64,000 nucleotides of DNA, taken from positions 576,001 through 640,000 of the forward strand of contig NZ_JAQNDL010000001.1 in the NCBI RefSeq assembly GCF_028368995.1. The letters are read 5' to 3'. The translations under genes and the position numbers were made by a program. The notes below the pieces were generated by a model that saw nothing but the letters and a program-made list of their open reading frames with translations, did no database searches and was not told the origin of the DNA. How positions within the stretch are numbered: the stretch's first letter is position 1; each line of letters starts with the position of its first letter. This document shows positions 1 to 16,507 of the stretch, piece after piece. The stretch comes from Nannocystis bainbridge. GTDB taxonomy: Bacteria; Myxococcota_A; Polyangia; Nannocystales; Nannocystaceae.

Positions 1-479
1 TCGAGGCCCCACTGCTTGCGCGTGTAGTTGCGGAAGAACTTGGTGTAGAGCTCGCGGCCGACCCGGCTGACGATCACGTCCTCGGAGGTGCGCACGCACT
101 CGACCCGCTCGGCGCGCTCGGCGAAGAACTGCTCGAGCTCGCTGGAGGACAGGCGCAGGCCGTACAGGCGATTGACGGTGTCGAGGTTGATCGGGACCGG
201 GACGAGCTGGCCGTCGACGCTGGCGAGGACCCGGTGCTCGTAGGCCCGCCACTCGGTGAACCGGCCCAGATAGTCGAACACCTCGCTCGAGTTGGTGTGG
301 AAGATGTGCGGCCCGTACTTGTGGACCAGGATGCCGCTGTCGTCGTAATGATCGTAGGCGTTGCCGGCGATGTGTGGGCGCCGGTCGACGACGAGGACGC
401 GCTTGCCCGCGTCGGCGGCCAGGCGCTCCGCGAGCACGCTGCCAGCGAAGCCGGCGCCGACGATCAGATAGTCGAACAT
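1..479 (-). CDS. glf: UDP-galactopyranose mutase (3' part runs off the window)
   Basis: Manual translation from ATG at 479: MFDYLIVGAGFAGSVLAERLA...HIAGNAYD...HKYGPHIFHTN; Rossmann GxGxxG plus the UGM HxYGPHIFH motif. Absent from the ORF track. Confidence 0.93.
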   Translation of the reverse strand, partial: MFDYLIVGAGFAGSVLAERLAADAGKRVLVVDRRPHIAGNAYDHYDDSGILVHKYGPHIFHTNSSEVFDYLGRFTEWRAYEHRVLASVDGQLVPVPINLDTVNRLYGLRLSSSELEQFFAERAERVECVRTSEDVIVSRVGRELYTKFFRNYTRKQWGL

Positions 480-1669
480 GCCCCGCCCCTCGTGACACCG
501 GACAGGTCGCCGCGCACGGCGGCGCCGATCAGCGACTCCATCTGCGCCCAGGTGTCGTCCCACGAGCCGCGCGCCAGGAATTCGTCGACCCGCTGCAGCC
601 ACTCGCCGCGCCGCGGCCGTTGCAACGCGCGATCGATCGCGGCGACGAACGCGGCCGGCTCGTCGGCGATGTCGACGAGGCCTTCGCGGCCGTACGGGTC
701 GACGACGTCGCGGATCGAGGTCGCCACCACCGGCCGCCCCGCCGCCAGGTACTCGGGCGTCTTGGTCGGGCTGATGTAGCGCGTCGAATCGTTGCGTGAA
801 AACGGCATGATCGCCGCGTCCCACCCGGCCAGGTAGGCCGGCAGCTCGGCGTACGGCTTCTGCCCGAGGTAATGGATGTTGGGCCGCTTCGGCAGGCTCG
901 ACGCCTCGATCTTGGCCACCGGCCCGATCATCACGAACTCGAGGCCCGGGCGCAGGTCGGCCGCCGCCGCCAGCAGATCGAGGTCGATGCGCTCGTCGAT
1001 GACGCCGCAGTAGCCGATCCGCGGCCGTCGCAGCTCCCGCTGGTCGGGCGGCTCGGGCTGGGGCGCGCGCGCCCGGCGAAAGTGGCTCACGTCGATGCTG
1101 CTCGGGAACAGATACGCGGTCGGCCGCACCACCTGCTTGGCCTCGTGGAGGCTGCGCCCGCCGGTGAACACGAGGTCGGCGCTGCGCAACAGGTCGCGCT
1201 CGCGCTCCCGCAGGGCCGGCGGCGCGCCCCAGAAGTTCGAGAGCTCGTCCATGCAATCGTACACGGTGGCGGCGGGGGCGAGGTGCCGGGTGAAGCCGAG
1301 CGCCATCGGCGTGTAGTACCAGAGGACATATTGACGCAGGCGATCGGCGACGATCAGATCGTCGATCAGGCAGCGCAACAGCATCTCGCTCTCGTCCTCG
1401 TCGACCTCGCGCGGCAGGTGGGGCACGATCACGTTCACGCCGCAGTCCCGCCGGCTGCGCTCGATCCGCGGCTGCGCGCCGCCGCGGTGCGGCTCCTCGA
1501 TGAAATACACCGGCCGGGCCCGGGCGCAGCGCGACAGCAGGTGCTGCGGGCGTTGATAGACGAAGTCCCAGCGGAGGTGCGACAGGCACACGAGGGCGTA
1601 GTCCGCGGCGGCCCGTGAGAGGCCCTGCGACCATCGATTCGGGACCTGCTCCTGATCGAGGTGATTCAT
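464..1669 (-). CDS. GT-B glycosyltransferase of the type found next to glf
   Basis: SHLRWDFVYQRPQHL, YDCMDELS, SPTKTPEYLAAG motifs; ATG at 1669 overlaps the galK stop (ATGA). Confidence 0.85.
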   Translation of the reverse strand: MNHLDQEQVPNRWSQGLSRAAADYALVCLSHLRWDFVYQRPQHLLSRCARARPVYFIEEPHRGGAQPRIERSRRDCGVNVIVPHLPREVDEDESEMLLRCLIDDLIVADRLRQYVLWYYTPMALGFTRHLAPAATVYDCMDELSNFWGAPPALRERERDLLRSADLVFTGGRSLHEAKQVVRPTAYLFPSSIDVSHFRRARAPQPEPPDQRELRRPRIGYCGVIDERIDLDLLAAAADLRPGLEFVMIGPVAKIEASSLPKRPNIHYLGQKPYAELPAYLAGWDAAIMPFSRNDSTRYISPTKTPEYLAAGRPVVATSIRDVVDPYGREGLVDIADEPAAFVAAIDRALQRPRRGEWLQRVDEFLARGSWDDTWAQMESLIGAAVRGDLSGVTRGGACSTI

Positions 1670-2796
1670 GATTCGAGGTTCATGGGACGGTTCGCCGGTC
1701 GATGCAACCACGGCAGTACGATCATTGGCGCGTGCGGGGCCATCGCCGAGTACGCGGCGACGACGTCGAGCGCGACGGCGGCGGTGCTGGCCCGATTGGT
1801 GAGGATGATCATCGCCCCGCCGAAGCCCCCGCCGGTGATGCGGGCGCCCAGGACGGCAGGGTGGCGATGGGCCAGCTCGACGAGCAGGTCGATCGCCGGG
1901 ACCGAGACCTCGAAGTCGTCGCGCAGCGATCGGTGCGACGCGTCGAAGATCCGCCCCAGCGCGGGCAGGTCCCCGCCCGTCAGCGCCGTGGTCGCGGCGA
2001 GCACCCGCAGGTTCTCGTGCACGACATGGCGGGCGCGGCGCCGCAGCGGCTCGGGCAGCTCGTCGATGCGCGGGTCGCCGGCCTCGACGTCGCGCAGCTG
2101 CGGGACCCCGAGCAAGGCCGCGGCCCGATCACACTCGGCGCGGCGCGTCCGATAGTCGCCGGTCGCGTGATCGTGGGCGACGCCCGAATCGATCACGACC
2201 AGCCCGAGGTCTGGCGGCAGGGCGATGCGCTCGACGACCCGCGAGCGGGTGTCGACGAACAAAGCGGAGCCCTCGTCGCCCTTGCTGCAGACCAGCGGAT
2301 CCATGATGCCGACCGGCGCGCCGACGAATTCGGTCTCGGCGCGGTGGGCCAGCGCGGCCAGCAGGTCGTCGTCGTAGGTCAGCGAGAAGGCGCGCCGGAG
2401 GCCGCGCAGCAGCGCCACCTCGAGGGCGGCGCTGGACGACAGGCCGCCGCCGACGGGCACGTCGGAGTCGACGTAGAGATCGAAGCCGGAGAGGGACCGA
2501 TCCGTCGCCGCGAGGGTGGCGGTGATCGCCTGCACGTAGTCGATCCATTCGCCGGAGCGGCGCTCGGCGCCGAGCTCGTACTCGCGGATGCCGGGCCGCT
2601 GGGCGCTGGTGGCCCGCACGCGCCGATCGGGCCGGAGCGCCAATTGCACGTAGGTCCGCTGCGGCAAGGCCGTCGGCAGCACATAGCCGCCGTTGTAATC
2701 GGTGTGGTCGCCGATCAGGTTGACGCGGCCCGGCGCGCTGGCGCCGAGATCGCTGGGGCGACCGAAGAGCTCGGTGAAGGCGTCGCGCTCAGTCAT
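1666..2796 (-). CDS. galK: Galactokinase
   Basis: APGRVNLIGDHTDYN, PVGGGLSSSAA and GARITGGGFGG GHMP-kinase motifs. Confidence 0.93.
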   Translation of the reverse strand: MTERDAFTELFGRPSDLGASAPGRVNLIGDHTDYNGGYVLPTALPQRTYVQLALRPDRRVRATSAQRPGIREYELGAERRSGEWIDYVQAITATLAATDRSLSGFDLYVDSDVPVGGGLSSSAALEVALLRGLRRAFSLTYDDDLLAALAHRAETEFVGAPVGIMDPLVCSKGDEGSALFVDTRSRVVERIALPPDLGLVVIDSGVAHDHATGDYRTRRAECDRAAALLGVPQLRDVEAGDPRIDELPEPLRRRARHVVHENLRVLAATTALTGGDLPALGRIFDASHRSLRDDFEVSVPAIDLLVELAHRHPAVLGARITGGGFGGAMIILTNRASTAAVALDVVAAYSAMAPHAPMIVLPWLHRPANRPMNLES

Positions 2797-3871
2797 CGAT
2801 CTTCACCTCGACGGCGCGCAGCTCGGCGGCCTTCTGCTCCGGCAAGGTCTCGGCGGTGAACACCCCCGCCCCGACCTCCGTGCCCGCCAGGTACTTGAGC
2901 CGCCCGGGCATGCGATACGGCGGGTAGAACTCGATGCGCAGGTGGGCCTCGGGGTGCGTCTGGCCGTCGCTCGGGGCCTGGTAGCAGGCCATCACGTACG
3001 GGAAGCTGCGCGCCCACAGGCCGTCGTACTTGAGCAGCGTGGTCTTGAGCGCGCGCGCCAGGTCCTTGCGGGTCTCGCCGTCGAGCGCGGGCAAGGAGGG
3101 GCACGCGACCCTGGGCGTGACCCACACCTCGTAGGCATAGCGGGCGCACACGGGCACGAACGCGACGGCGCGTGGGCCGTGGTAGAGGAGGCGCTCGGCG
3201 GCGGCGATCTCGGCGTGCACGAGCTCGAGCGCGAGGTTGCGGCCGCAGCGGGCGAAGTACTGCTCCTGGTTGGCGAGCATGCGCGCGGGGATCGGCGGGA
3301 CGAACGGATAGGCGTAGATCTGGCCGTGCGGGTGATGCAGGGTGACGCCGACCTCGACGCCGCGGTTCTCGAACGGGAACACGTAGGCGATGTCGTCGCG
3401 CCGCCCGAGCGCGGCGGTGCGGTCGGCCCAGACCTCGAGGATCAGCTCGATCTGCGCCAGCGGCAGGGTGCCCAGCGATTGCGTGGGGTCGCGCGAGAAC
3501 ACCACGACCTCGCAAGCGCCGATCCCGGGGCCGGTGTCGACGATCGTCTTCGGCGGCGCGGGGGCGGTGGCCGCCAGCGCGGGATAGAGGTTGTCGAACA
3601 CTGCGACGTCCCACGGGCAGCCGGGGACCTCGGTCGGATGCGCCGGGTCGGAGGTCGGCAGCAGCGGGTTGTACTCGGGCGGCGGCAAGAACGTGCGGGT
3701 CTGGCGATGGGCGGCGTAGACGACCCACTCGCCGCGCAGCGGGTGCCAGCGCAGGTGGGAGCCGCCCTCGCCGCCGCGCGGACCCTCGAGCCGGCATTCG
3801 TCCGGCACCGCCGAATGGCCATAGAGGTGGAGCTCGCGCCCGTCCGGCTTGACGAAGCTGCGCTTGAACAC
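2789..3871 (-). CDS. galT: Galactose-1-phosphate uridylyltransferase
   Basis: [22 protein letters not shown] catalytic motif; overlaps the galK start. Confidence 0.92.
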
Positions 3872-3872
3872 G

Positions 3873-5711
3873 CTACACCTCCTGCCCCTGGCGCCCGTGG
3901 TCGTCGTGCGGGGTCGGCGGCCCGAGGCCGTTCAGCGCGGCGATCCGCTCGATCGGGAGCTTCGGCGTGCGGTCGGCGTACAGCAGGCCGTTGGCCTCCT
4001 GATAGGTGTCGGCGAACTGCGTATAACAATAGCCGGCGAGGATGTCCTGGGCGCGGACCACCGAGAACAGCGCGTGCAGCCGGCGCTCGAGGTCGGCCGC
4101 GTCGTCGCTGCGGCTGTAGCCCCAGGTGCTGCGGCGGTCAGGCGAGCAGGCGATGCCGCCGAACTCCGACAGGACCACCGGATGGTTGAACTCCTGGAAG
4201 TTGCCGAGCACCAGCTCGCGGCCGCCGAAGCGCTCGCGCTCGCACAGGTTGTGGCGCACGTTGGGCGCCTGGTAGCGCGACAGCATGCGCTCCGGGTCGA
4301 CCTCGTAGTCGTGGATGCCGACGATGTCCGTGGCGACGCTCTCCCACCCGTCGTTGCCGACGACCGGGCGGTTGGGGTCGAGGGTCTTCGTCAGGTGGTA
4401 CAGGGCGGTGACGTAGTGCCGCTCGGACGGGTTGTCCGGCAGGTTGGGGACCCCCCACGACTCGTTGAAGGGGACCCACGCGACGACGCACGGGTGGCTG
4501 CTGTCGCGCTCCAGCACCTGCATCCACTCCTGGGTGAGCGCCTGCACCGAGCGGCGGGTGAAGCGATAGGCGCTCGGCATCTCCTCCCATACGAGCAGGC
4601 CCAGGCGATCGGCCCAATAGAGGTAGCGCGGGTCCTCGATCTTCTGGTGCTTGCGGACCGCGTTGAAGCCCATGGCCAGCGCGAGCTCGACGTCGCGGCG
4701 CAAGGCCGCCTCGTCCGGGGCGGTGAGCCCGGTCTCCGGCCAATAACCCTGGTCGAGCACCATGCGCAGGCGGATCGGGCGGCCGTTGAGCAAGATCTGG
4801 TCGCGGTGCACGCCGATCGTGCGCAGCGCGGTGTAGCTGCGCACGGCGTCGACGACGGCGCCGCCGGGGCCGATCAGATCGACCTCCGCCTCGATGAGGT
4901 TGGGCGCCTCCGGGCACCACAGCAGCTCGTTGCGCGCGTCGTCGATGCCGGGATCCGACAGCGGGATCCGGCGGTGGATCTCGTGGTGCTGGCACTGGTA
5001 GCGATCCTCGACGAGCAGACAGTCGCCCGAGAACAGCCGCAGGCGCAGGCTGTAATCCGGGCTGACGACGCCGACGATCGTGCTGCTGAAGCCGATCTCC
5101 CAGCGGAACAGGTTCGAGGTCCAGCGCAGGTGCGCCAGGTGGACGGCGGGGACCCGCTCGATCCACACCGATTGCCAGATCCCCGTGGTGCGCTGATACC
5201 AGATCGAGTGCGGCACCTCCTGCCAGTCCTGCTTGCCGCGCGGCTTGGCGAGGTCGTGCGGATCGTCGAGGGCGCACACGACGACCTCGATCGGCTTCCT
5301 GGCGCCGCCGAGCCGGGTCACCTCGACCGAGAACGGGGTGTAGCCGCCGACGTGGGTCGCGACCTCGGCGCCGTCGATCCACACCGTGGCAGCGTAGTCG
5401 ACCGCGCCGAAGCGGAGAAACAGCAGCTCGCCGGCGGCCGCGGCCGGGAGGGTCACCTTGCGGCGGTACCAGCAGGCGGCGTAATAGCCGTGCTCACCGA
5501 CGCCGCTGCGCTCGGTCTCCGGAGCGAACGGGACCTGGATCGTTCGGTTCCAGGCGACCTCCCGCGGGTGCCGCCAGCGCGCCTCACGATCGAGCGCGAA
5601 GTCCCAGGCGCCGTCGAGGCTGGCCCAGGTGTCGTCGCCCCGGCGCAGCATCGGCCGCAGATAGCCGGGGCGCGACGGGGCCACGGCGCTGTTGGAAGAG
5701 GGTCGGGTCAT
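3873..5711 (-). CDS. Glycoside hydrolase family 2
   Basis: FGAVDY, HVGGYTPF, GIWQSVW, LDQGYWP, WVPFNESWG (acid/base) and SEFGG (nucleophile). Confidence 0.88.
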   Translation of the reverse strand: MTRPSSNSAVAPSRPGYLRPMLRRGDDTWASLDGAWDFALDREARWRHPREVAWNRTIQVPFAPETERSGVGEHGYYAACWYRRKVTLPAAAAGELLFLRFGAVDYAATVWIDGAEVATHVGGYTPFSVEVTRLGGARKPIEVVVCALDDPHDLAKPRGKQDWQEVPHSIWYQRTTGIWQSVWIERVPAVHLAHLRWTSNLFRWEIGFSSTIVGVVSPDYSLRLRLFSGDCLLVEDRYQCQHHEIHRRIPLSDPGIDDARNELLWCPEAPNLIEAEVDLIGPGGAVVDAVRSYTALRTIGVHRDQILLNGRPIRLRMVLDQGYWPETGLTAPDEAALRRDVELALAMGFNAVRKHQKIEDPRYLYWADRLGLLVWEEMPSAYRFTRRSVQALTQEWMQVLERDSSHPCVVAWVPFNESWGVPNLPDNPSERHYVTALYHLTKTLDPNRPVVGNDGWESVATDIVGIHDYEVDPERMLSRYQAPNVRHNLCERERFGGRELVLGNFQEFNHPVVLSEFGGIACSPDRRSTWGYSRSDDAADLERRLHALFSVVRAQDILAGYCYTQFADTYQEANGLLYADRTPKLPIERIAALNGLGPPTPHDDHGRQGQEV

Positions 5712-5736
5712 ACGCGCCGCTGGGTTGTCGCCGCTG

Positions 5737-7008
5737 TCAATCGCCGTCCGGCCGGCCCAGCGCGCCGGGGTGGCGCTCGCACACCACGGCCAGCGCGGCC
5801 TCGGCGGCGCGCAGGGTGCGATCGATGTCGTCGTCGGTATGGGCGGCGCTGACGAACCAGAGGTGACGCGGGTGCAGCAAGATCCCGCGCTGGACCATCT
5901 CGGTGTAAAAAGTCGCCGCGACGGCGTCGCGCACCCGCAGATCGGCGTGGGTGAACCGCAGGAACGGCATCGGCGGCAGCGGCTCGCCGTAGGCCAGAGC
6001 CGGCACGCCGGCGCGGTCGACGGCCGCCTGCAGGCCGGCGATGAGGCGCTCGCCTAGCCGCCACACGTGATCGGTGACGGCGTAGCGATCGAGCACATCG
6101 AGGGTGGCGAGCGCCGCCGCGATGCCGGTGGTCTCGCCGTGGTAGGTCGCCGACATGTGGAGCTCGGCGCCGTGCCGCATGACCTCGCGCCGCCCGACCA
6201 CCGCGGCGACCGGCCAGCCGTTGCCGAGCGCCTTGCTGAGCGTGGTGAGGTCGGGCACGACGCCGGCCCACTGCTGAAACGAGCCCGGGCGGATGCGCAG
6301 GCCGGTCTTGATCTCGTCGAGGATGAAGACGGCCCCGTGCTCACGCGCGTGCTCGGCGAACAGCCGCGCGAGCTCGGGCCGCGACGCGGGCATCATCTCC
6401 GGCGCGAGGATCACCGCCGCGACCTCGCCCGGGTGCGCGCGCAGCAGCTCGCGCAGCGACTCGGGCTCGTCGGGGCGGAACTCGAGCACCTGCCTCTCGA
6501 GCCCGTCGGGCACGAAATCGGCGAGCGGCAGGCACCAATCGTGCCACCCGTGATAACCACAGCGGGCCACGCGACGCCGACCGGTGGCCCGTCGCGCCAG
6601 CCGCAGCGCCGCCGTGGTCGCGTCGGAGCCGGTCTTGAAGAACGCCCCCATGTCGGCGCCAGGCAGGCGCGCGACCAGCCGCTCGACGAAGCGCAGGTGC
6701 AGCGGGTGATTCAGGGTCAGCAGGTTGCCGCGCCGCGCCTGCTCGAAGGCCGCGCGGTCGACCTCCTCGTGGGCGTAGCCGAGCAGCAGCGGGCCGAAGG
6801 CCATCACGTAGTCGATGTATTCGTGGCCGTCGACGTCCCACACGCGACAGCCGGCGCCGCGCGCGAAGTACATCGGCGAATCGGCGGGGGTCACGAGCGG
6901 CCGCCCGGAGAGGTGATAGCCGCCGGGGATCAGCGTGCGCGCGCGCTGCAGCAGCTCCTGCGAGGCGAGGAACGAACGCGCCGGCGGTGTGAGGCCCTGC
7001 TGGTCCAC
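5737..7008 (-). CDS. Class III PLP-dependent aminotransferase (GSA-aminomutase-like fold)
   Basis: WDVDGHEYID, KTGSDA, GYHGWHD, DEIKTGLR, LSKALGNG (PLP lysine). Confidence 0.85.
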   Translation of the reverse strand: MDQQGLTPPARSFLASQELLQRARTLIPGGYHLSGRPLVTPADSPMYFARGAGCRVWDVDGHEYIDYVMAFGPLLLGYAHEEVDRAAFEQARRGNLLTLNHPLHLRFVERLVARLPGADMGAFFKTGSDATTAALRLARRATGRRRVARCGYHGWHDWCLPLADFVPDGLERQVLEFRPDEPESLRELLRAHPGEVAAVILAPEMMPASRPELARLFAEHAREHGAVFILDEIKTGLRIRPGSFQQWAGVVPDLTTLSKALGNGWPVAAVVGRREVMRHGAELHMSATYHGETTGIAAALATLDVLDRYAVTDHVWRLGERLIAGLQAAVDRAGVPALAYGEPLPPMPFLRFTHADLRVRDAVAATFYTEMVQRGILLHPRHLWFVSAAHTDDDIDRTLRAAEAALAVVCERHPGALGRPDGD

Positions 7009-8439: not shown

Positions 8440-9435
8440 TCACAGCGCCAGCAGGCCGCGCGCCGCGTCGAGCGCCAGCGGCTGGGCCCCGTAGCTGGCC
8501 GCGCCGACGCCCCAGCGCGCGAAGCCGGCGGGCTCCGGCGCCTCGTCGGTGGCTGCGCCATGGCTCCACCAGCCGGTCACGCTCAATCGCTTGCCGCGCG
8601 CGTACGGCGACACCGGCGTGACCGCGTGCACGGTCTCCGCCGCGACGTTGAACACGATCAGCGTGTTGAATGACGGCACCACCTGCGCGCCGCTCGGGCC
8701 CCACACGAACTGACCGCCCGAGGCCGCGTCCCAGTCGCGGGCGAGGTGCCACACGAACGCGACGGCGCGCGCCAGCTTGTGATCGGCGTGCGGCGCCGCG
8801 AAGTCGCCGGCGACGTAGCGCGTCGCCCCGAGCTCGAGCGGACCGCCGCAGTCGCGGCCCGACAGCGCCGCCGCGAGCTCGCGGCTGGCGGCGGCGCCGA
8901 ACAGCGCGCGGCTGGCCGCGATCGTCGGGCCGGCGGGGTCGGCCTCGTCGAGCACGTGGTGTCGATAATGCGGCGAGCTGCCGAACGCCTCGACGGCGCG
9001 CCAGCGGACGGCGGCGTCGAGGGCCGCGCCGACCCGCTCGGCGAGGTCGCGGCGCAGCGCGTCGCGGATGACCACGGCCCGCCCGGCGGCCAGCTGGGCG
9101 GCGATGTCGTCCTTGCGCGCCAGCGCGGCCGGGTCGAGCGCTTCGACCAGCGACGTCGGCCACGCCGCGGGCGCGACCGCGGGCGTGCGTTCGTCGACCA
9201 GCAACCCCTCGGCGACCAGGCCGGCGACCGTCGCCGCCAGCTCGGCAGGCGAGCCGAACTCGGCGAGCGTCGCGTGGGCCGCGGCGATCGTGCGCGGGCA
9301 GGCGAACGCGGCCAGCGTCTGGAACACCCGCGGCGCCAGCGAGAAGGCGCGCCGACCGACGAGCGCGACGACCGTCGCGTCAGGCCCGGGGCGAAACACG
9401 CACGCGGGCGCGAGGACATAGGACGACTCCGGCAT
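8440..9435 (-). CDS. Fe(II)/2-oxoglutarate oxygenase (prolyl-hydroxylase-like) with an N-terminal RRE/winged-helix-like domain
   Basis: YxxGDFxxPHAD ... W(D)xxxGG ... PxFNTLxxF ... VHAV ... RLSVTGW. The first ~85 aa show a strands-then-helices pattern ending LVAEGLLV. Confidence 0.8.
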   Translation of the reverse strand: MPESSYVLAPACVFRPGPDATVVALVGRRAFSLAPRVFQTLAAFACPRTIAAAHATLAEFGSPAELAATVAGLVAEGLLVDERTPAVAPAAWPTSLVEALDPAALARKDDIAAQLAAGRAVVIRDALRRDLAERVGAALDAAVRWRAVEAFGSSPHYRHHVLDEADPAGPTIAASRALFGAAASRELAAALSGRDCGGPLELGATRYVAGDFAAPHADHKLARAVAFVWHLARDWDAASGGQFVWGPSGAQVVPSFNTLIVFNVAAETVHAVTPVSPYARGKRLSVTGWWSHGAATDEAPEPAGFARWGVGAASYGAQPLALDAARGLLAL

Positions 9436-9525
9436 TGGCACCACCACTCAGCGCTCGTACCCGCGGCCGCGCCGTCGCGTCAAGCCGCAGCGCGCTCGAC
9501 CCGTCGCGGGCGAAATGAAGCATGT

Positions 9526-9542
9526 AAAAATCACGGATTTTT
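9526..9542. promoter_or_regulatory. AT-rich perfect inverted repeat AAAAATC-ACG-GATTTTT in a divergent intergenic region (candidate operator)
   Basis: 7-3-7 palindrome in otherwise very GC-rich DNA, between the oxygenase and precursor genes. Confidence 0.4.
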
Positions 9543-9737
9543 CGCTGCGACATCGCCGAGCACGCCCTGTCATCCCGACAGAGGCGCACGCACGGCATGT
9601 CCCGCCGCCACGCATTATCGAACATCCACGCGCACGATCGCCCGGGACCCGGGGACGAGGTGCCACGAATACGGAGCGTGTCCTTGTATTTCGACACAGG
9701 CAGCTCCGCGGACCCGAACACACAGGAGAGAAGCGAC

Positions 9738-9899
9738 ATGAAGGAGACGATTCAAGAGGTCGAGGGCGTGAAGGAGATCGATCCGGCCCACATCCACGAC
9801 CTGTTCCAGCTCGAGACCCTGGCCCCGCCGAGCGAGGCCAACGGCATGAGCTGCTGCGTGATCATCTGCCGGACCTGGACCCCGGGCCAGGCGGGCTGA
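9738..9899 (+). CDS. Putative RiPP precursor peptide, 53 aa (MKETIQEVEGVKEIDPAHIHDLFQLETLAPPSEANGMSCCVIICRTWTPGQAG)
   Basis: AGGAG SD at 9724-9728; GC3-biased codons; acidic leader plus Cys-rich C-terminus; directly upstream of modifying-enzyme genes. Confidence 0.82.
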   Translation: MKETIQEVEGVKEIDPAHIHDLFQLETLAPPSEANGMSCCVIICRTWTPGQAG

Positions 9900-9925
9900 A
9901 CCAGGGCGCCCGCCACCACCACGCC

Positions 9926-10732
9926 ATGACGATTCCACCGGACAACTTGTCGGAGTATCGCGACCACGGCGCGACGGTGCTGCGCGGCGTCATCCCGGCG
10001 AGCTGGCAAGCCCGCCTGGAGGCGGCGATCGACCGGGTGCTCGCCGCGCCCGGCTCGATCGCCGTCGACTACACCCCGCCGGACCGACCCGGTCGCTTCT
10101 ATAACGATTTCTTCTTGTGGCTGCGCGAGCCCGAGTTCGCCGCGTTCGTGCGCGAGTCGCCGCTGCCCGCGCTGGCCGCGGAGCTGCTCGGCGCGGCGAA
10201 GGTCGGGTTCTTCTTCGACCAGCTGTTCGTCAAGGAGCCGCGCACCCAGGAGAGCATGCCGTGGCATCAAGACCTGCCGTACTGGCCGGTCGCGAGCGAC
10301 GCGCTGGTGACGATGTGGGTGCCGCTCGACGTCGTCACCCGCGAGAGCGGCGCGGTGGTCTACGCCCGCGGCTCGCACCGCTGGGGTCGCGTCGCCAAGC
10401 GCTGGCGGTTCGCCCGCGACGGCGCGACGGCCCCGCCCGAGACGGAGGAGATCCGCGAGGCGTCGTTCATGTACTGGGACCTGCGGCCCGGCGACGTGCT
10501 GGTCCACCACCCGCTGACGGTGCACGCGTCGGGCGGCAACGCGACGCCGGGGACCCGCCGCCGCGCGCTCGCGCTGCGCTACTTCGCCGACGGTTGCGTG
10601 TACCAGCCGCGCGAGGGCGACATCCTGCAGAACCCGCGCGTGCGCGAGCTGCTGCCTGACCTCGCCCTCGTCGCCGGCGAGCCGCTACGCGGCCCGGAAT
10701 TTCCGATCGTGTGGCCCCCGGAGGTCGCGTGA
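9926..10732 (+). CDS. Phytanoyl-CoA dioxygenase (PhyH)-family Fe/2OG dioxygenase
   Basis: DQLFVKEP, WHQD, WVPLD, GSHRW, PGDVLVHH..TVHASGGN, RRALALRY. True start ATG 9926; the ORF track over-extends it. Confidence 0.88.
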   Translation: MTIPPDNLSEYRDHGATVLRGVIPASWQARLEAAIDRVLAAPGSIAVDYTPPDRPGRFYNDFFLWLREPEFAAFVRESPLPALAAELLGAAKVGFFFDQLFVKEPRTQESMPWHQDLPYWPVASDALVTMWVPLDVVTRESGAVVYARGSHRWGRVAKRWRFARDGATAPPETEEIREASFMYWDLRPGDVLVHHPLTVHASGGNATPGTRRRALALRYFADGCVYQPREGDILQNPRVRELLPDLALVAGEPLRGPEFPIVWPPEVA

Positions 10733-11556
10733 CGCCGCCGCCGCTGGTCGGCTTCGCCTATCGCCGGCAGTATCGCGCCGCGCTGTGCGAGGCGGCGCGC
10801 GGGCCCGACGTGCTCGAGCTGATGGCCGAGTCCTTCGACCCGCGCCTGCCCGGCCGGATCGACGACGTGCGAGCGCTGCGCGAGCGCTACGCGCTGATCG
10901 GGCACAGCGTCGGGCTGTCGATCGGCTCGGTCGAGCGCCCGCCGCAGGCCTACCTCGACGGGCTGGCGCGCTTCGTCGAGTTGGTCCAGCCGCGGGTCTA
11001 CAGCGACCACTTCGCCGTCACCTACGCCGGCGGGCGCGACCTCGGGCACCTGACGCCGATCTGGTACGGCGAGCAGGCGCTCGAGGTCGTCGTGAACAAC
11101 CTTACCGCGGCGCGGCGCTTGCTCGGCGTGCCGATCTGCCTCGAGCTCATCGCCGAGCCGTTCTCACTGCCCGGCGCGCAGTGGGACCAGGCCCGCTTCG
11201 CCGCCGAGGTGTGGCGCGCGTGCGGCTGCGGGATCCACCTCGACGTCACCAACGTCTTCATCAACGCCCGCAACTCGGGTCAGTGCCCGCGGGCCTCGAT
11301 CGCCGCGCTGCCGGCCGAGGCGGTGCAGATGATCCACGCCGTCGGCTTCGGCCGCTACGAGCACGGCGAGCTGGCCGACACCCACGACCAGGACATCCAG
11401 CAGGAGCTGTGGGACCTGCTCGCGTACACCTTCACGCGCGTGCGCCCGACCACCGCCGTCATCGAGCGCGACGCCAACTTCCCGCCGTACGAAGCGCTGC
11501 TGGCCGAGGTCGATCGCATGCGCTCGCTCGCCACGCCCCTGGAGGTCGCCTCGTGA
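10729..11556 (+). CDS. DUF692 / multinuclear non-heme iron-dependent oxidative enzyme (MNIO; MbnB/TglH/ChrH family)
   Basis: GHSVGLSIGS, SDH, LELI, LDVTN, IHAVG, DTH, IERDANFPP: the iron-ligand pattern of DUF692. GTG start overlaps the upstream stop (GTGA). Confidence 0.9.
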   Translation: MTPPPLVGFAYRRQYRAALCEAARGPDVLELMAESFDPRLPGRIDDVRALRERYALIGHSVGLSIGSVERPPQAYLDGLARFVELVQPRVYSDHFAVTYAGGRDLGHLTPIWYGEQALEVVVNNLTAARRLLGVPICLELIAEPFSLPGAQWDQARFAAEVWRACGCGIHLDVTNVFINARNSGQCPRASIAALPAEAVQMIHAVGFGRYEHGELADTHDQDIQQELWDLLAYTFTRVRPTTAVIERDANFPPYEALLAEVDRMRSLATPLEVAS

Positions 11557-13691
11557 CACCGCTGACCCTCTGCATGATCGTCAAGTTCCCGCCGATCCAG
11601 GGCGGCGTCAGCCAGCAGAGCTACTGGCTGGCGCACAACTTCGCGCGCGCCGGTCACCGCATCCACGTCGTCACCAACGCGCTCGAGGCCGCGTCCGACT
11701 ATCGCATGTTCCTGCCGGCGGCCGAGCGCCCGCACCTCGAGGGCGAGTACCCCGGCGGCGGGTTCGTCCGCCTGCACGCGAGCGACGAGGCCGGGCTCGA
11801 GGGCAACTACATCCCGTACGCCAACCCGTACGTCAGCAAGCTGGCGGCGCTGGCCCGCGACGTGGTCCGCGAGCACGCCTGCGATCTGATCTGGGCCGCG
11901 TACCTCGAGCCCTACGGGGTCGCGGCGGCGCTGGCGTCGAAGCTCACCGGGGTGCCCTACGCGGTCCGCCACGCCGGCAGCGACATCGCCGGGCTGGCGC
12001 AGCTGCCGGCGCGCCAGAACCTCTACCTCGACGTGCTCCGCCACGCGAGCCTGGTGGTCACCGCGCCGTTCCTGCGGCCGACGCTGGAGCGCGTCGGGGT
12101 CGCGCACGCGCACATGTTCGCGGTGCCGCTCGCCGCATACGCCAGCGCGGGCTTCGAGCCCGACGGGCCGAAGCTCGACGTCGAGGCATTGCTCGACGAG
12201 GCCGCGGGCGAGCGCGGGCCGTGGCCCCGGCCGGCCCGGCGCTTCGACCCCGCGCTGCCGACGTTCGGCATCTACGGCAAGGTCAGCGGCTACAAGGGCA
12301 TGTTCGAGGTCGTCGCCGCGCTCGGCGAGCTCGCGGCCCAAGGTCGCCGCTTCAATCTTTTGACGTTGGTCGGCGCGCGCGGGCCGGCGGTCACGGCCCT
12401 GCAGCAGGCGGTCGCGCAGGCCGGCATCGCCGAGTCGACGTACGCGCTGCCGTTCTTGCCGCACTGGATGGTGCCGCGGTTCATCCGCACGTGCACCGCC
12501 GTGTGTTTTTTGGAGAACCGGTTCCCGATCGCCATCCACACGCCGCAGGTCGGGTTCGAGATCCTCGCGTGCGGCCGCTGCCTGATCGTGTCCGAGGAGG
12601 TGCGATCGAAGACGCAGCGGCGCGCCGATCTGGTCGACGGGGTGCACGCGCTCGTGATCGACGATCCGGCCGACGCGGCGCAGGTGCGGCGGGCGCTGGC
12701 GCGGGTGCTCGACGACCCCGCCGAGGTGCGGGCGATCGGCGCGCGCGGGCGAGAGTTCGTGACCGGGCGGTTCGCCGCGCCGGACGTGTCGGCGGTGGTG
12801 AAGCGGCTGCGCCGCGTGATCGAGGAGGCAAACCCGATGTCCCTGGAGGGCCTGCAGCGGACCCTGAGCGAGCTCTACGCCGATCCGTCGCTGCGCGCCG
12901 CGCTGGCGGCGGGCGAGGAGGCTGGCCTGCACGGCCGCGACCTCGACGACCGCGAGCGCGCGGCGGTGCTGGAGCTGGGCCGGCGGCTGATGCCGCAGGT
13001 CGAGCGCTTCGGGCAGATGCTCGTGCACAAGCGGCTCGAGTATTTCCTCGAGCTGTTCGCCGCGACCGCGCCGCACCTGCGGGCGCACGAGCCGGCGCTG
13101 TTGGCTGCGTTCGCGCGCGAGTTCGATTTCCGCTGGCGCGCGCCGGCCGAGGACGTCGCGTACTTCGGCGAGTTCCTGCGCCGCCTGCTGGTCGCGCCGT
13201 GGCCGGCCCACGTGCGCGAGCTGGTGCGCTACGACGAATGCATGTGGCGGGCCGAGACGACCGACGACGACGCCGCGCCCGCGTTCGAGCGCCTGCTCGA
13301 GATGCAGATCACCGAGCCGCCCGGCCTCGGCGCGGCGCCGCTGAGCGCCGAGGACCGCGTCGCGCTCGCGCCCGGGGTGATCGTCGAGCGCTTCGCTCAC
13401 CCGGTGCACCGCCTGGCCGCGGAGGGCCCCGAGGCGCGGTTCGAGCCGGCCGCGACGGTGATCGTGTTCACGCCCCGGCGCGGAGCGACCGCCGCCCGCG
13501 CCCACGTGATGAACGAGGAGCTCGTCCGCCTGGCCACAGCCGCGGGCGACGGCCATCCGGTGGCGGCGCTGCTCGACGAGGCCGCGGCGCGTCACGCGGA
13601 GCGCCCGGCCGAGGCGGTGCGGCAAGCCGCCCTGCGCGCGCTGCAACGGCTCGGCGAGCGTCACGTGCTCGTGCGCGCGCCGCTGCGGTGA
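11553..13691 (+). CDS. GT4-like glycosyltransferase fused to a C-terminal MNIO-partner-like (DUF2063/RRE-type) domain
   Basis: GTG at 11553 overlaps the MNIO stop. N-terminal part: KFPPIQGGVS, HAGSDI, GKVSGYKG, EILACG. From ATG 12837: MSLEGLQRTLSELYADP...KR... ending in a winged-helix-like segment. Confidence 0.8.
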   Translation: MTPLTLCMIVKFPPIQGGVSQQSYWLAHNFARAGHRIHVVTNALEAASDYRMFLPAAERPHLEGEYPGGGFVRLHASDEAGLEGNYIPYANPYVSKLAALARDVVREHACDLIWAAYLEPYGVAAALASKLTGVPYAVRHAGSDIAGLAQLPARQNLYLDVLRHASLVVTAPFLRPTLERVGVAHAHMFAVPLAAYASAGFEPDGPKLDVEALLDEAAGERGPWPRPARRFDPALPTFGIYGKVSGYKGMFEVVAALGELAAQGRRFNLLTLVGARGPAVTALQQAVAQAGIAESTYALPFLPHWMVPRFIRTCTAVCFLENRFPIAIHTPQVGFEILACGRCLIVSEEVRSKTQRRADLVDGVHALVIDDPADAAQVRRALARVLDDPAEVRAIGARGREFVTGRFAAPDVSAVVKRLRRVIEEANPMSLEGLQRTLSELYADPSLRAALAAGEEAGLHGRDLDDRERAAVLELGRRLMPQVERFGQMLVHKRLEYFLELFAATAPHLRAHEPALLAAFAREFDFRWRAPAEDVAYFGEFLRRLLVAPWPAHVRELVRYDECMWRAETTDDDAAPAFERLLEMQITEPPGLGAAPLSAEDRVALAPGVIVERFAHPVHRLAAEGPEARFEPAATVIVFTPRRGATAARAHVMNEELVRLATAAGDGHPVAALLDEAAARHAERPAEAVRQAALRALQRLGERHVLVRAPLR

Positions 13692-13880
13692 CTGCCATGA
13701 TCGCCCGAGTCACTCGGCGAGCACCACATCGTGCGCCGTTGCAGTGACTGCCGTGATCGTCCGTATCACTCGGCGAGCGTCACGGGATCGTGCGCGCCGC
13801 TGCTGTGACTGCCGTGATCGTCCGTATCACTCGGCGAGCGTCACGTGATCGTGCGCGCGCCGCTGCAGTGACTGCTGTGA
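13650..13880. repeat. Four imperfect ~60-bp tandem repeats; the first is the 3' end of the GT gene
   Basis: Units beginning CTCGGCGAGC at 13650, 13713, 13769 and 13830. Confidence 0.85.
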
Positions 13881-13918
13881 TTCGCTGCGAGCCCGGTCGA
13901 CTACGATCGGGCGCTCGA

Positions 13919-16507
13919 TCAGGGCAAAATCTCGACGTACCCATCCGTCCCGTGCACGCGGATCCGCTGCCCGTCGCGGATCCGCCGGGTCGCCTGGTCC
14001 ACGCCGACGACGGCCGGCAGGCCGTACTCGCGGGCGATCACGGCCCCATGCGTCATCAAGCCCCCCACCTCCGTCACCAGCCCGGCGATGGCGACGAACA
14101 GCGGCGTCCAGCTCGGGTCGGTGTACGCGGTGACGAGGATGTCGCCCGCCTCGAGATCGGCCCGCGCCATGTCGAGCACGACGCGGGCCCGCCCCTCGAT
14201 CGTGCCGGCGGACACCGGCAAGCCGACCAGCGCGCCGGCCGGCAATCCGTCGGATCGGTACGCCCCGGCGACGACCTCGCCGTCCGAGGTGAGCACGCGC
14301 GGCGGCGTGAGCGAATGATAGGACTCGAAGGCTTCTCTGCGCTGGCGGAGCAGCGCCGCGTCGACGTGATGCGTGCGCACGACGTCGAGGAGCTCCGGCA
14401 ACGTGAGGTAGTCGATGTCGTCCAGCGCCCGCAGCACGCCGGCCTGCACCAGGCGCCCGGCTTCTTCCACCAGCGCCTGCTTGTAGACGAAGAAGCGGCA
14501 GATCATGCCGTACTTCGGGTACTCCCGGTAGCCGATGAAGGTGCGCACGCGATCGATCTGCCGCCGGGTCTCCTCGGCCTTGCGCTCCCCGTCCGGCAGG
14601 GCCCGCAGGCGCTCCTGCAGCTCCTGCGATCGCTTCAGCGCCTCCTGCCGCCCTCGCTCGAAGCGCCGCGCGCCGGCGCCCGGCCCCAGGTTCTTGATGT
14701 TGCCCAGGAGCACCGGCACGAGCATGCCGGGGCGTTCGCTCCACCGCGGCCGCGTGATGTCGATCTCGCCGGCGCAGCGCATGCCGTACGCGTCGAGGTA
14801 GGCGACGATGGCGTCCCGCGCCTCCGGCCCGCCCGGGAGCGTGGCCAGCCCGGCCAGGAAATCGTCGTGCTCGACGCGCTGGAGAAACGCCACCACCTCC
14901 GGATACGGGCGAATGACGTCGGCGACGTCGAGCAGCGCCAGCCCCATCTCCGAGGTGACGTTGTCGGCGACGGACTGCGTGAGGATGTCGGCGGCGCTCT
15001 TCTCGCCAAGCCACGCGTGAAGCTGCTCGTTGAGCCACCAGGTGGCCTCGAACGCGGCCATGAGCACGCGATGGCCCTGCGGATCGAACAACCGCCGCTT
15101 CAGCTCGGGGATGTCGGCGAGGATGCACTCGAGCAGCGCCGCGCCGGTCTTGCCGTGGATGTCGCGCTTCAGGGCGGCGATGGAGGCCTGGTTGCGCTCG
15201 ATCAACCCGGCGACGATGGCGGGGTCGGTGTCGATCGGGGCCGGCGCGCCACCAGCCGGCGCCGCGGCGGGCGGTGGGTCCGGGAGCGCGCGGATGAAAT
15301 CACCGCGCTCCCAGATCGACCGCAGGGCGTCGCGGATCCGCGGGTCGGAGCGGCCGAAGACCTCGAGGAGCTTGGCCCGGCTCGTCGGCGCGGCGAGGCC
15401 CCGCGTGACCTCGACGAACAACCTCCCGCCCGCCTCGTGCATGGGCCCGGCCGCAGCGAGGCGAAACAGCGAAAGCCCCAGCGGCTTCATCGGGTCGGTC
15501 ATCATCTGCTGGTGGCCGACCGAGACGTAGACGTGGTTGTCGCCGTCGCCCGCCTCGGGGATGGGAAACAGGGTGGTGATCGGCCGGCTCTGCACGATCG
15601 AAAATTCGTCGTCGACCAGGCACCACTCGATGTCCTGCGGGCGGCCAAAATGCGCCTCGATCTGCCGGCCGAGCTGCGCGAGCCGTAGCACCTGCGCGTC
15701 GGTCAGCGCCGGCTGCCGCTGCCGCTCGGGCGCGACCGCCTGCGCCTGCGTCCCGCCGACCGGCGCGGCGACGACGGCGAACTGCTTGCAGGCGATCGTC
15801 CTGGTGACGATATCGCCGCCCAACACCTTGAAGATGTCCGGGTTCACCAGGCCGGAGACCTGGGCCTCGCCGAGGCCGAAGCTGGCCTCGACGGAGACGA
15901 CCTTGCGGTGCGACGTGACGGGGTCGGCCGTGAACAGGACGCCGGCGGCCTGCGGGAAGACCATGCGCTGCACGACCACGGCCATGCCGACCTTGCGGTG
16001 ATCGAAGCCGTTGCGCTGGCGGTAGACCACGGCCCGCTCGCTGAACAGCGAGGCCCAGCAGCGACGGACGTGCGCCACGATCGCCGCCGGCCCGACGATG
16101 TTGAGGTACGTGTCCTGCTGGCCGGCGAAGGAGGCCGTCGGCAGGTCCTCCGCGGTCGCGCTCGAGCGGACGGCGTACGCCTCGCGCTCGCCGAGCCGAA
16201 CCACCGCGCCGGTGATCGCGGTTGCCAGCTCGTCCGGGATGGTGATGGCTTCCACGATCGCGTGGATCTCCGCCGCGAGCGCCCGAATCGCCGCGCGATC
16301 GTCCGGCTGCAAGCGCGCCAGCCGGGCCAGTGACTCGGCGATCGAGGGCGCCACGACCCGCTGAAACGCCGCCGTCGTCACGCAGAAGCCGGCGGGCACG
16401 CGCACGCCTTCGAGCCGCGACAGCTCCCCCAGATGCGCGCCCTTGCCGCCGACAACCGCGACCTGCGTCCGATCGATCTCCTCGAAATTCACCACGTAGT
16501 GGCCCAT
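13919..16507 (-). CDS. rph: Rifamycin-inactivating phosphotransferase (PEP-synthase-like, 862 aa)
   Basis: GGKG, VRSSATAEDL, QDIEW, QSRPITTL ATP-grasp; SVGHQQMMTD, YGMRCAGEIDIT, GYREYPKY central domain; C-terminal GGLMTHGAVIAREYG phospho-His swivel. ATG 16507 preceded by AGGGAG. Confidence 0.85.
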   Translation of the reverse strand: MGHYVVNFEEIDRTQVAVVGGKGAHLGELSRLEGVRVPAGFCVTTAAFQRVVAPSIAESLARLARLQPDDRAAIRALAAEIHAIVEAITIPDELATAITGAVVRLGEREAYAVRSSATAEDLPTASFAGQQDTYLNIVGPAAIVAHVRRCWASLFSERAVVYRQRNGFDHRKVGMAVVVQRMVFPQAAGVLFTADPVTSHRKVVSVEASFGLGEAQVSGLVNPDIFKVLGGDIVTRTIACKQFAVVAAPVGGTQAQAVAPERQRQPALTDAQVLRLAQLGRQIEAHFGRPQDIEWCLVDDEFSIVQSRPITTLFPIPEAGDGDNHVYVSVGHQQMMTDPMKPLGLSLFRLAAAGPMHEAGGRLFVEVTRGLAAPTSRAKLLEVFGRSDPRIRDALRSIWERGDFIRALPDPPPAAAPAGGAPAPIDTDPAIVAGLIERNQASIAALKRDIHGKTGAALLECILADIPELKRRLFDPQGHRVLMAAFEATWWLNEQLHAWLGEKSAADILTQSVADNVTSEMGLALLDVADVIRPYPEVVAFLQRVEHDDFLAGLATLPGGPEARDAIVAYLDAYGMRCAGEIDITRPRWSERPGMLVPVLLGNIKNLGPGAGARRFERGRQEALKRSQELQERLRALPDGERKAEETRRQIDRVRTFIGYREYPKYGMICRFFVYKQALVEEAGRLVQAGVLRALDDIDYLTLPELLDVVRTHHVDAALLRQRREAFESYHSLTPPRVLTSDGEVVAGAYRSDGLPAGALVGLPVSAGTIEGRARVVLDMARADLEAGDILVTAYTDPSWTPLFVAIAGLVTEVGGLMTHGAVIAREYGLPAVVGVDQATRRIRDGQRIRVHGTDGYVEILP

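Follow-up and report, generated by a model that had tools for sequence, protein, structure and literature searches.

The locus at 8440–13691 of the 64-kb window (the whole stretch of DNA analysed) from the soil myxobacterium Nannocystis bainbridge is, in our judgement, reasonably likely to be a RiPP biosynthetic cluster working by the pathway proposed below. It combines an MNIO (DUF692) enzyme, a GT4 glycosyltransferase that carries its own MNIO-partner domain, a Cys-containing precursor and two Fe/2OG oxygenases. Gene content, folds, intact ligand sets and comparative linkage underlie this reading, which the original prediction had put forward and which is supported by a gene block kept in three other Nannocystaceae genomes and by the pairing of glycosyltransferase (GT) and MNIO at 65 of 78 loci. 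The cluster is real and probably functional; its chemistry is predicted. Sequence comparison places it in a large family that spans several phyla, as a reduced branch in the Nannocystaceae.

An ORF check recovered all five predicted genes at their expected positions. A 53-residue precursor (9738–9899, + strand; AGGAGAG 5′ of its ATG) is followed, after a 26-bp gap (9900–9925), by genes for a 268-residue PhyH-family dioxygenase (9926–10732, +), a 275-residue MNIO starting from GTG (10729–11556, +) and a 712-residue GT fusion (11553–13691, +). The last three are joined by GTGA stop/start overlaps (10729–10732 and 11553–11556), each with GGAGG 5–7 nt 5′. A 335-residue 2OG-Fe(II) oxygenase is encoded divergently (8440–9447, − strand). 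The region between it and the precursor operon (9448–9737, no strand assigned) is presumably a promoter region, judged by position; there is no sigma-70-like site in 9300–14000, a consensus that may not suit myxobacterial promoters. The anticipated Pfam families PF05114, PF05721, PF13640 and PF00534 were all matched by the respective proteins. The five ORFs are taken as coding because their GC3 is 0.86–0.96 and they are conserved in four genomes (the surrounding region has 72–74% GC). Flanking ORFs encode an aminotransferase, a PEP-utilising enzyme and a GST-sized product; as anticipated, neither a protease nor an exporter family was found among them, and AsnB-like and ABC queries had no match in the first 24 kb of the window.

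The MNIO matches PF05114 at 4.9e-64 (216.6 bits, cut-off 25). Its predicted H/H/E/D/N/H/D/H/E ligand pattern is complete and invariant in 41 aligned MNIOs: H59, H94, E139, D172, N175, H203, D217, H219 and E246, counted from the GTG at 10729. All nine line up with MbnB in a PDB alignment, where the MbnB variant 7tcw differs at the H219-aligned position. Scores against NCBIfam equivalog models (bits/cut-off) are 180.9/310 for BufB, 147.8/360 for HvfB, 77.5/400 for ApyH, 45.7/325 for MbnB and 28/600 for ChrH. The reaction is not confidently transferable, since the protein falls below every curated cut-off. We rejected assignment as a BufB or HvfB equivalog (bufferin maturase) on these scores, and as MbnB on its TIGR04159 score and because MbnC is only a remote fold match of the partner domain (Foldseek rank 20, E 0.93). 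A bufferin-type cluster was likewise rejected: the precursor has no Sec signal peptide and the partner no DUF2063 match at E ≤ 1. In a tree, the MNIO sits in a clade of GT-linked MNIOs.

MNIO enzymes had been said to need a partner protein. HMM, fold and complex model place it in the C-terminal 286 residues of the GT fusion (residues 427–712; 12831–13691, +), so that the predicted "GT4 fusion" resolves into a GT4 glycosyltransferase joined to a TglI/NGO1945-like MNIO partner with a terminal PqqD-type RRE. An HMM of free-standing partners matches this tail with 104.9 bits (2.1e-32), whereas the tails of the shorter GTs give no match to it; the fusion tail is nearer to the free-standing proteins. 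Its AF2 model (pLDDT 89.5) comprises a helical, DUF2063-like part by fold (about 12837–13301, +) and the RRE (about 13356–13676, +), identified by a profile match to PqqD 5sxy at 1.9e-5. The best Foldseek matches are 8hi7_A and 8hci_A (TM 0.63/0.66), which we take from chain length to be TglI, followed by NGO1945 (3dee, TM 0.55/0.76). Pfam DUF2063 has no match in the domain at E ≤ 1. Modelled together, MNIO and partner domain score 0.89, against 0.51 for the best control; among reference cases, 58 of 80 solved complexes reached that mark, as did 2 of 110 mismatched pairs. Runs share at least 96% of contacts, with partner pLDDT at least 84. The model supports binding of the MNIO by the fusion tail as a prediction, although similarity to the TglHI and MbnBC complexes already solved may have shaped the score.

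The same pairing recurs widely. Surveying pattern matches in one-genome-per-species contigs, we found GT relatives encoded at 233 of 240 matches and kept 78 loci. The 65 of these with an MNIO span Actinomycetota, Myxococcota, Acidobacteriota, Chloroflexota and Pseudomonadota. A free-standing partner is present at 56; eight of the other nine have the full partner domain fused to the GT, as in N. bainbridge. MNIOs from fused-partner loci cluster in the tree, the N. bainbridge clade being sister to the MNIOs of loci L035 and L026 (SH-aLRT 99). In a phylum sample of 400 other genomes, with two candidates scored per genome, the fusion had no match at E ≤ 1e-10. The expected neighbourhood of the MNIO held in part: the GT is kept across phyla, whereas PhyH and the divergent oxygenase occur only in Nannocystaceae (3 of 78 loci). 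Comparison across loci marks these two enzymes as lineage-specific additions and not features of the whole GT–MNIO family. The searchable full-text literature bears out the claim that no MNIO pathway with a glycosyltransferase has been characterized: each described MNIO pathway found there has a free partner protein and none has a glycosyltransferase.

Both oxygenases were assigned as predicted. PhyH matches PF05721 at 2.5e-34 over profile positions 1–212 of 213, and its translation contains the HxD...H triad (WHQD and TVHAS). Its nearest solved sequence is MysH (9c9n, 3.2e-40); orthologues at the three Nannocystaceae loci share 67–90% identity, and the other 75 GT loci have no PhyH. The divergent enzyme is prolyl-hydroxylase-like, matching PF13661 at 1.9e-13 and PF13640 at 7.8e-12 (51.2 and 46.4 bits, cut-off 27; residues 208–294), with an HxD...H...R motif (PHADH, TVHAV and RLSVTGW). 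It has a single PDB sequence match, OGFOD1 (4nhx, 8.4e-6), and only seven relatives at E ≤ 1e-5. The first ~100 residues of this protein might constitute an RRE-like domain for binding peptides, as weakly indicated by hhalign (56% probability, E 1e-4) and by a score of 0.91 for an Atlas look-alike cluster of PqqD–2OG fusions; Pfam PqqD has no match in this protein at E ≤ 1.

In the three Nannocystaceae relatives, all five genes are kept together as one block, set between unrelated flanks. Identity to N. bainbridge is 84–92% in N. pusilla Na p29 and 52–70% in Nannocystis RBIL2 and Nannocystaceae ST9. The relatives carry two precursors and a methyltransferase, whereas N. bainbridge has one precursor and no methyltransferase; by this comparison it is a reduced copy that has lost the second precursor and the methyltransferase. 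The methyltransferase is frameshifted in Na p29, and in RBIL2 an out-of-frame deletion across MNIO and GT breaks both genes. All three Nannocystis copies therefore depart from the ST9 layout, and decay within the genus is conceivable. The cluster is also patchy there (3 of 10 other genomes match, one with a fragment only), and a four-copy tandem repeat (unit 56–63 nt) begins within the last 42 nt of the GT fusion gene. Taken together, these features could mean that the cluster is a decaying remnant, giving no product or a truncated one in the N. bainbridge strain. We regard this as unlikely: all five ORFs are open and full length with the GC3 given above, catalytic residues are intact in the GT4 domain and MNIO, Shine–Dalgarno sites and stop/start overlaps are kept, and the clean loss of the methyltransferase has left PhyH and MNIO coupled.

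The GT4 domain (residues 1–426; 11553–12830, +) matches PF00534 at 7.1e-8 (32.6 bits, cut-off 26.4) and is modelled by AF2 with pLDDT 89.6 as a two-Rossmann GT-B fold. Foldseek ranks BshA first (6d9t, E 1.3e-16, TMt 0.73), with GlgM, PimB′, MshA and LmbT among further top matches; BshA, MshA and PimB′ match at E 1e-14 to 1e-16. BshA and MshA act in thiol-cofactor synthesis. These top neighbours use small acceptors, and solved peptide-glycosylating enzymes are absent among the Foldseek matches listed, so the domain might act on a small molecule or serve as a non-catalytic scaffold for the partner domain instead of glycosylating the peptide. The usual spacing of the EX7E motif seems altered as well (invariant E321, H329 and E336). 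We nevertheless consider this quite unlikely, given that the GT is covalently joined to a predicted peptide-binding, RRE-type tail in about 70 of 81 relatives and that sugar-cofactor pathway genes are absent from the cluster. Eight residues do not vary across 45 sequences: K11, G17, G18, K243, K248, E321, H329 and E336. The G17/G18 loop, K243/K248 and E321/H329/E336 are, judged by motif, candidate donor-binding residues, and their invariance disfavours a dead scaffold.

The precursor, MKETIQEVEGVKEIDPAHIHDLFQLETLAPPSEANGMSCCVIICRTWTPGQAG, combines an acidic leader that contains LFQLETL with a three-Cys core; its acidic N terminus has no hydrophobic stretch. Seven copies in four genomes share a 23-residue block, LFQLETL(A/S)PP(S/G)EANGMSCCVI(I/L)C, between variable N termini and C-terminal tails. 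At 27 of the 78 GT loci, the enzyme genes are preceded by small Cys-rich ORFs whose leader carries an (L/F)(E/Q)(F/L)(E/D) motif, and all 47 such matches from a search of both strands share the strand of the GT. Their cores have 4–8 Cys in CxxC-like repeats, against three in N. bainbridge. A precursor HMM built without Nannocystaceae seeds misses the N. bainbridge peptide even at E ≤ 10; what suggests kinship between them is limited to a short motif, their position and their Cys content. That the enzymes act instead on a peptide or protein encoded elsewhere, as this miss and the lack of any Pfam or NCBIfam match to the 53-residue ORF might suggest, is very improbable given the place of this ORF just ahead of PhyH in each of the four genomes (often in two copies), the strong conservation of a block ending in a Cys motif, and the Cys-rich ORFs beside the enzyme genes at the 27 other loci.

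In the pathway we favour, the 53-residue peptide would be the substrate. The RRE at the end of the fusion would bind its leader, probably at LFQLETL, and the helical part of the partner domain would dock on the MNIO, mirroring TglI on TglH; one scaffold could therefore present the core SCCVIIC... to two catalysts. Using O2, the MNIO would convert one or more Cys; analogy to BufB, HvfB and MbnB, the nearest relatives with a name, suggests a 5-thiooxazole or oxazolone–thioamide as the product. The GT4 domain would move a sugar from a nucleotide sugar onto the peptide, while the MysH-like PhyH and the prolyl-hydroxylase-like oxygenase would add lineage-specific hydroxylations, so the product would be oxidised, hydroxylated and glycosylated, as originally predicted. 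We infer the modified residues, the sugar used, the order of steps, leader removal and export; genes for leader removal and export are absent next to the cluster. A bolder reading, which we find rather doubtful, would see an undescribed cross-phylum RiPP class: within its Cys-rich core, Cys would be converted by the MNIO to a heterocycle bearing a thiol (such as 5-thiooxazole), after which a GT4, brought in by a paralogue of the MNIO partner, would attach a sugar to that sulfur or to a residue beside it. Partner and GT would have merged in the Nannocystaceae, Streptomyces lactacystinicus, Bryobacteraceae and Ktedonobacteria forms, so that a single leader-binding scaffold would work successively with two unrelated catalysts.

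MNIO enzymes are yielding unusual peptide chemistry at a fast-growing rate, and here a GT4 enzyme with a partner-like tail travels with them at at least 65 loci in five phyla. In one lineage the fusion replaces the free partner, offering a clean system for asking how a single recognition domain passes its peptide on to two catalysts, and the cluster allows one to ask whether MNIO-made heterocycles can be glycosylated. Since the Nannocystaceae form adds two Fe/2OG oxygenases, its product would be new, and myxobacteria have a proven record of bioactive compounds. With every statement on that product inferred, the locus has limited value.

Among known systems, TglHI (3-thiaglutamate/pearlin; PDB 8hi7) likewise combines an MNIO with a partner built of a helical and an RRE-like domain. 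TglI is the best structural match of our partner domain but a separate protein, whereas the N. bainbridge partner is fused to a glycosyltransferase; TglH matches our MNIO only weakly (1.5e-11). The target of the TglHI pathway is a Cys added to a scaffold peptide. Bufferin enzymes (BufB/BufC, HvfB/HvfC) are the nearest curated MNIO models and share with our reading a Cys target and a DUF2063+RRE partner architecture; they differ in that the N. bainbridge precursor has no Sec signal peptide and its partner no Pfam DUF2063 match. Methanobactin MbnBC has the same nine-ligand core and, together with a partner protein, oxidatively converts Cys of a ribosomal peptide into heterocycles, but copper-uptake genes are absent near the N. 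bainbridge cluster. In glycocins, a ribosomal Cys peptide is glycosylated by a dedicated enzyme; those enzymes (SunS/ThuS-type, giving S-glycosylated peptides) are GT2 and are not known to work with an MNIO, in contrast to the BshA/MshA-type GT4 fold found here. Passages of PMC12452194 class TglI-kind partners without a Pfam DUF2063 signature, with precursors without signal peptides, as 'PME-type 2', and those of its main text on bufferin clusters mention no GT, PhyH or P4H-like enzyme. RRE–glycosyltransferase fusions appear as uncharacterized RRE-Finder candidates in passages of PMC7470986 and PMC12710340; the family in the latter is PF00535 (GT2), and those passages draw no link to MNIOs. 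The N. bainbridge enzyme, by comparison, is a GT4, and the domain fused to it is a whole MNIO partner, not an RRE alone.

The five ORFs of the cluster lie where the original prediction had put them and belong to the families it named, as judged by an ORF map and Pfam scan. A 2OG oxygenase (8440–9447, minus strand; 2OG-FeII_Oxy_4 and _3) is transcribed divergently from a 53-aa precursor ORF (9738–9899), which has an AGGAG-type site upstream and, as anticipated, a 26-bp gap downstream. There follow a PhyH gene (9926–10732; PhyH 2.5e-34), an MNIO gene (10711/10729–11556; MbnB_TglH_ChrH 216.6 bits) and a glycosyltransferase (GT) fusion (11553–13691; Glycos_transf_1 32.6 bits, cut-off 26.4). The GTGA overlaps reported at 10729 and 11553 are real, each preceded by GGAGG, and the claim of a full MNIO ligand pattern is borne out by nine ligands that are invariant across 41 aligned sequences and alignable with MbnB. 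G+C content of the window is 70–76%.

The flanking genes encode an aminotransferase, a PEP-utilising enzyme and a GST-sized ORF; no protease or exporter was found among them, in agreement with the same prediction. No sigma-70-like promoter was detected in 9300–14000, using a consensus that may not fit myxobacterial promoters. Three terminator-like sites, all within the fusion gene (shuffle mean 0.9), look like chance occurrences. A tandem array spans 13650–13881, with four copies of period 56–63 nt that are 62–92% identical to the first copy as reference. Its unit starts at the 3' end of the GT-partner gene, with the final 42 nt and the stop codon, and the repeats extend into the gap ahead of the convergent PEP-utilising gene; the unit's 14-nt core was not found in the loci of the relatives. 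Upstream of the cluster lies an apparent sugar-metabolism gene run (464–7008, minus strand) with a GHMP-kinase-like start, a 612-aa glycoside-hydrolase-like ORF and a class-III aminotransferase, the sole member scanned (PF00202 2.6e-42).

The fusion protein is bipartite. Residues 1–426 are a GT4 domain, whose AF2 model (pLDDT 89.6) has BshA, GlgM, PimB' and MshA as its best solved neighbours, with LmbT at rank 30. Across 45 GT sequences, K11, G17, G18, K243, K248, E321, H329 and E336 do not vary. The whole fusion has no match to PDB sequences at E ≤ 0.01. The GT4 assignment of the original prediction thus stands, and is refined by what follows the GT: residues 427–712 are an MNIO partner domain, the kind of protein that MNIO enzymes had been said to need. 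Curated matches to this tail are weak (HvfC RRE 5.5e-4, PqqD relative 2.6e-3), and neither Pfam PqqD nor DUF2063 is found in it at E ≤ 1. An HMM built from free-standing ORFs following MNIOs in related loci matches it at 104.9 bits, and profile comparison with PqqD by sequence gives 1.9e-5. Modelled separately (AF2, pLDDT 89.5), the tail is closest, within the PDB, to chain A of the TglHI entries 8hi7 and 8hci, then to NGO1945 (3dee), then to PqqD. Chain A is taken to be TglI because it has 269 residues, against 304 for TglH.

Complex modelling of the MNIO with the tail gave a score of 0.89 (best control 0.51). Of 80 solved complexes, 58 reached that mark, as did 2 of 110 mismatched pairs. At least 96% of contacts are shared between runs, and the partner pLDDT is 84 or higher. 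The models support binding of the tail by the MNIO; the score may partly reflect likeness to TglHI and MbnBC, whose complexes have already been solved.

Relatives of the fusion at E ≤ 1e-5 number 358 among 7,996 candidates scored, mostly 600–720 aa in length, from Myxococcota, Actinomycetota, Acidobacteriota, Chloroflexota and Pseudomonadota; some carry the source name "PqqD family peptide modification chaperone". A sample of the phylum had given matches at E ≤ 1e-10 in none of 400 other genomes (two candidates scored per genome); the family came into view only with an alignment-based scan. Run on one genome per species, this yielded 240 pattern matches. Relatives are encoded at 233 of them, and the set retained comprises 78 distinct loci. 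An MNIO is present in 65 of these by HMM (64 by phmmer). Four of the 13 loci without one have a tail-less GT, and several are on 4–7 kb contigs or at contig ends.

A free-standing partner-like ORF is also present in 56 of the 65 MNIO loci. The remaining nine comprise eight whose GT bears the partner domain in full length (scores 222–332) and one with a tail-less GT. A typical GT, at about 650 aa, ends in a shorter tail that is a paralogue of the partner (hhalign 99.2%, 203 columns); free-standing partners align with the window tail along its entire length (hhalign 100%, 262 columns). One Bryobacteraceae MAG (locus L026) has both architectures back to back on one contig (2876–5905 and 6627–10231): in one, the GT-partner fusion accompanies an MNIO; in the other, the partner is free and the GT beside the MNIO has a short tail.

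A 97-row MNIO tree groups the GT-linked enzymes into a single 70-row clade (SH-aLRT 98), which also takes in two context-less proteins and, from the genome that contains the window, a long-branched paralogue. The sister group of the window group consists of MNIOs from two fused-partner loci, one in Streptomyces lactacystinicus and one in a Bryobacteraceae MAG. The 11.05-Mb host genome (G000) holds five PF05114 genes. The four outside the cluster are in loci L001, L002, L003 and L005, the last encoding the long-branched enzyme inside the GT-linked clade; the genome yielded no further GT relative.

Accessory genes vary across the family. Among the 78 loci, PhyH and the 2OG oxygenase were found only in the three from Nannocystaceae. 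Asparagine-synthetase-like genes (PF00733 plus GATase) stand beside GT-MNIO genes in 22 of the 78 (L028, L031, L036, L041, L046, L059, L076 and 15 more), often with ABC transporters, which are found in 13 of the 78; neither is present in the first 24 kb of the window. Such an enzyme makes C-terminal nitriles in another MNIO cluster, according to a recent preprint (PMC13060819). Scattered elsewhere are a lanthipeptide dehydratase, methyltransferases and flavoenzymes. One 967-aa relative of the fusion (P0007, 50% identity) has an extra PF02633 (creatininase-like) domain. It and P0160, a protein related to the divergent 2OG oxygenase at 41% identity, may share one contig, as each is from a 16,018-bp NCBI contig. 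The original reading as a RiPP cluster holds, in a refined form: within a large MNIO-GT family, the window cluster forms a branch that is lineage-specific and reduced.

A locus search with a single protein recovered two Nannocystis relatives only; among named relatives, Nannocystis pusilla Na p29 and Nannocystis sp. RBIL2 come closest. At family level, 7 of 72 other genomes match at E ≤ 1e-5, full-length in only three. Comparing six parts with six fetched loci (tblastn plus ORF maps) recovers the window's block in Na p29, RBIL2 and Nannocystaceae bacterium ST9, with differing genes outside it. ST9, of another genus, has parts 52–70% identical to the window's and the fullest layout: the oxygenase and, divergently, two precursors, PhyH, a 261-aa SAM methyltransferase (Methyltransf_25 3.9e-18), MNIO and GT-partner. 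Relative to ST9, the window is missing one precursor and the methyltransferase, of whose gene there is no trace. In Na p29 (L021, 7561–8330) the methyltransferase that lies between PhyH and MNIO is split over two reading frames, apparently by a frameshift. RBIL2 (L022, ~9030–9310) has an intact upstream methyltransferase and an out-of-frame deletion fusing MNIO residue ~102 to GT residue ~44, so that the cluster looks broken in that strain, barring assembly error. Another Nannocystis genome (G433; locus L020, 8719–10535) has a 55-residue stretch 78% identical to the end of the window RRE, adjoining a 545-aa ORF that starts MCGIIA and is amidotransferase-like in look; this may be a different RRE-dependent cluster.

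Seven precursor copies have LFQLETL(A/S)PP(S/G)EANGMSCCVI(I/L)C in common, with variable N-termini and C-terminal tails. A precursor model built from 25 hand-picked small ORFs gave 47 matches, in the window and 27 loci, all on the GT strand. These have a leader motif (for example, LEFELEQL, FEFEEL or FQLDMV) and a Cys-rich core 8–18 residues beyond. Without its three Nannocystaceae seeds, the HMM does not match the window peptide at E ≤ 10; the likeness to the wider family is therefore one of shared plan, not proven homology.

The cluster has an intact MNIO, a GT4 domain tied to a partner/RRE domain and two intact Fe/2OG oxygenases; the Cys-bearing peptide is conserved, and the MNIO-partner-GT linkage spans phyla. 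In the pathway that we propose, the RRE would bind the leader and the helical part of the tail would dock the MNIO, which would convert Cys as do BufB, HvfB and MbnB. Bufferin and methanobactin assignments were each rejected, the MNIO falling below the equivalog cut-offs; a different reaction is possible because its score is below every curated cut-off. The GT would add a sugar to the peptide; the one type of residue shared by every core is Cys or a sulfur derived from it. The MysH-like PhyH (3.2e-40) and OGFOD1-like oxygenase (8.4e-6) would hydroxylate core residues, perhaps Pro. The latter might conceivably have its own RRE; its N-terminus has no Pfam PqqD match at E ≤ 1.

Searches through the running text of freely accessible papers found none on an MNIO pathway with a glycosyltransferase, and the MNIO-GT family is undescribed in the literature searched. 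"Glycosyl" is absent from the main text of the MNIO landscape paper (PMC12452194). As far as the sections consulted go, five papers describe other MNIO systems, without a glycosyltransferase: Acetobacteraceae DUF692 (PMC8776678), Microbulbifer (PMC12538549), homocitrulline (PMC13174530), biphenomycin-like (PMC12257519) and nitrilobacillin (PMC13060819, a preprint). RRE-glycosyltransferase fusions are named as uncharacterised in passages of PMC7470986 and PMC12710340. An excerpt of the landscape paper pictures a 276-residue Plesiocystis pacifica partner, which may be the gene in our locus L018/L065, and links "PME-type 2" partners to precursors without signal peptides. In the terms of that excerpt, the window tail is a "PME-type 2" partner without a DUF2063 match.
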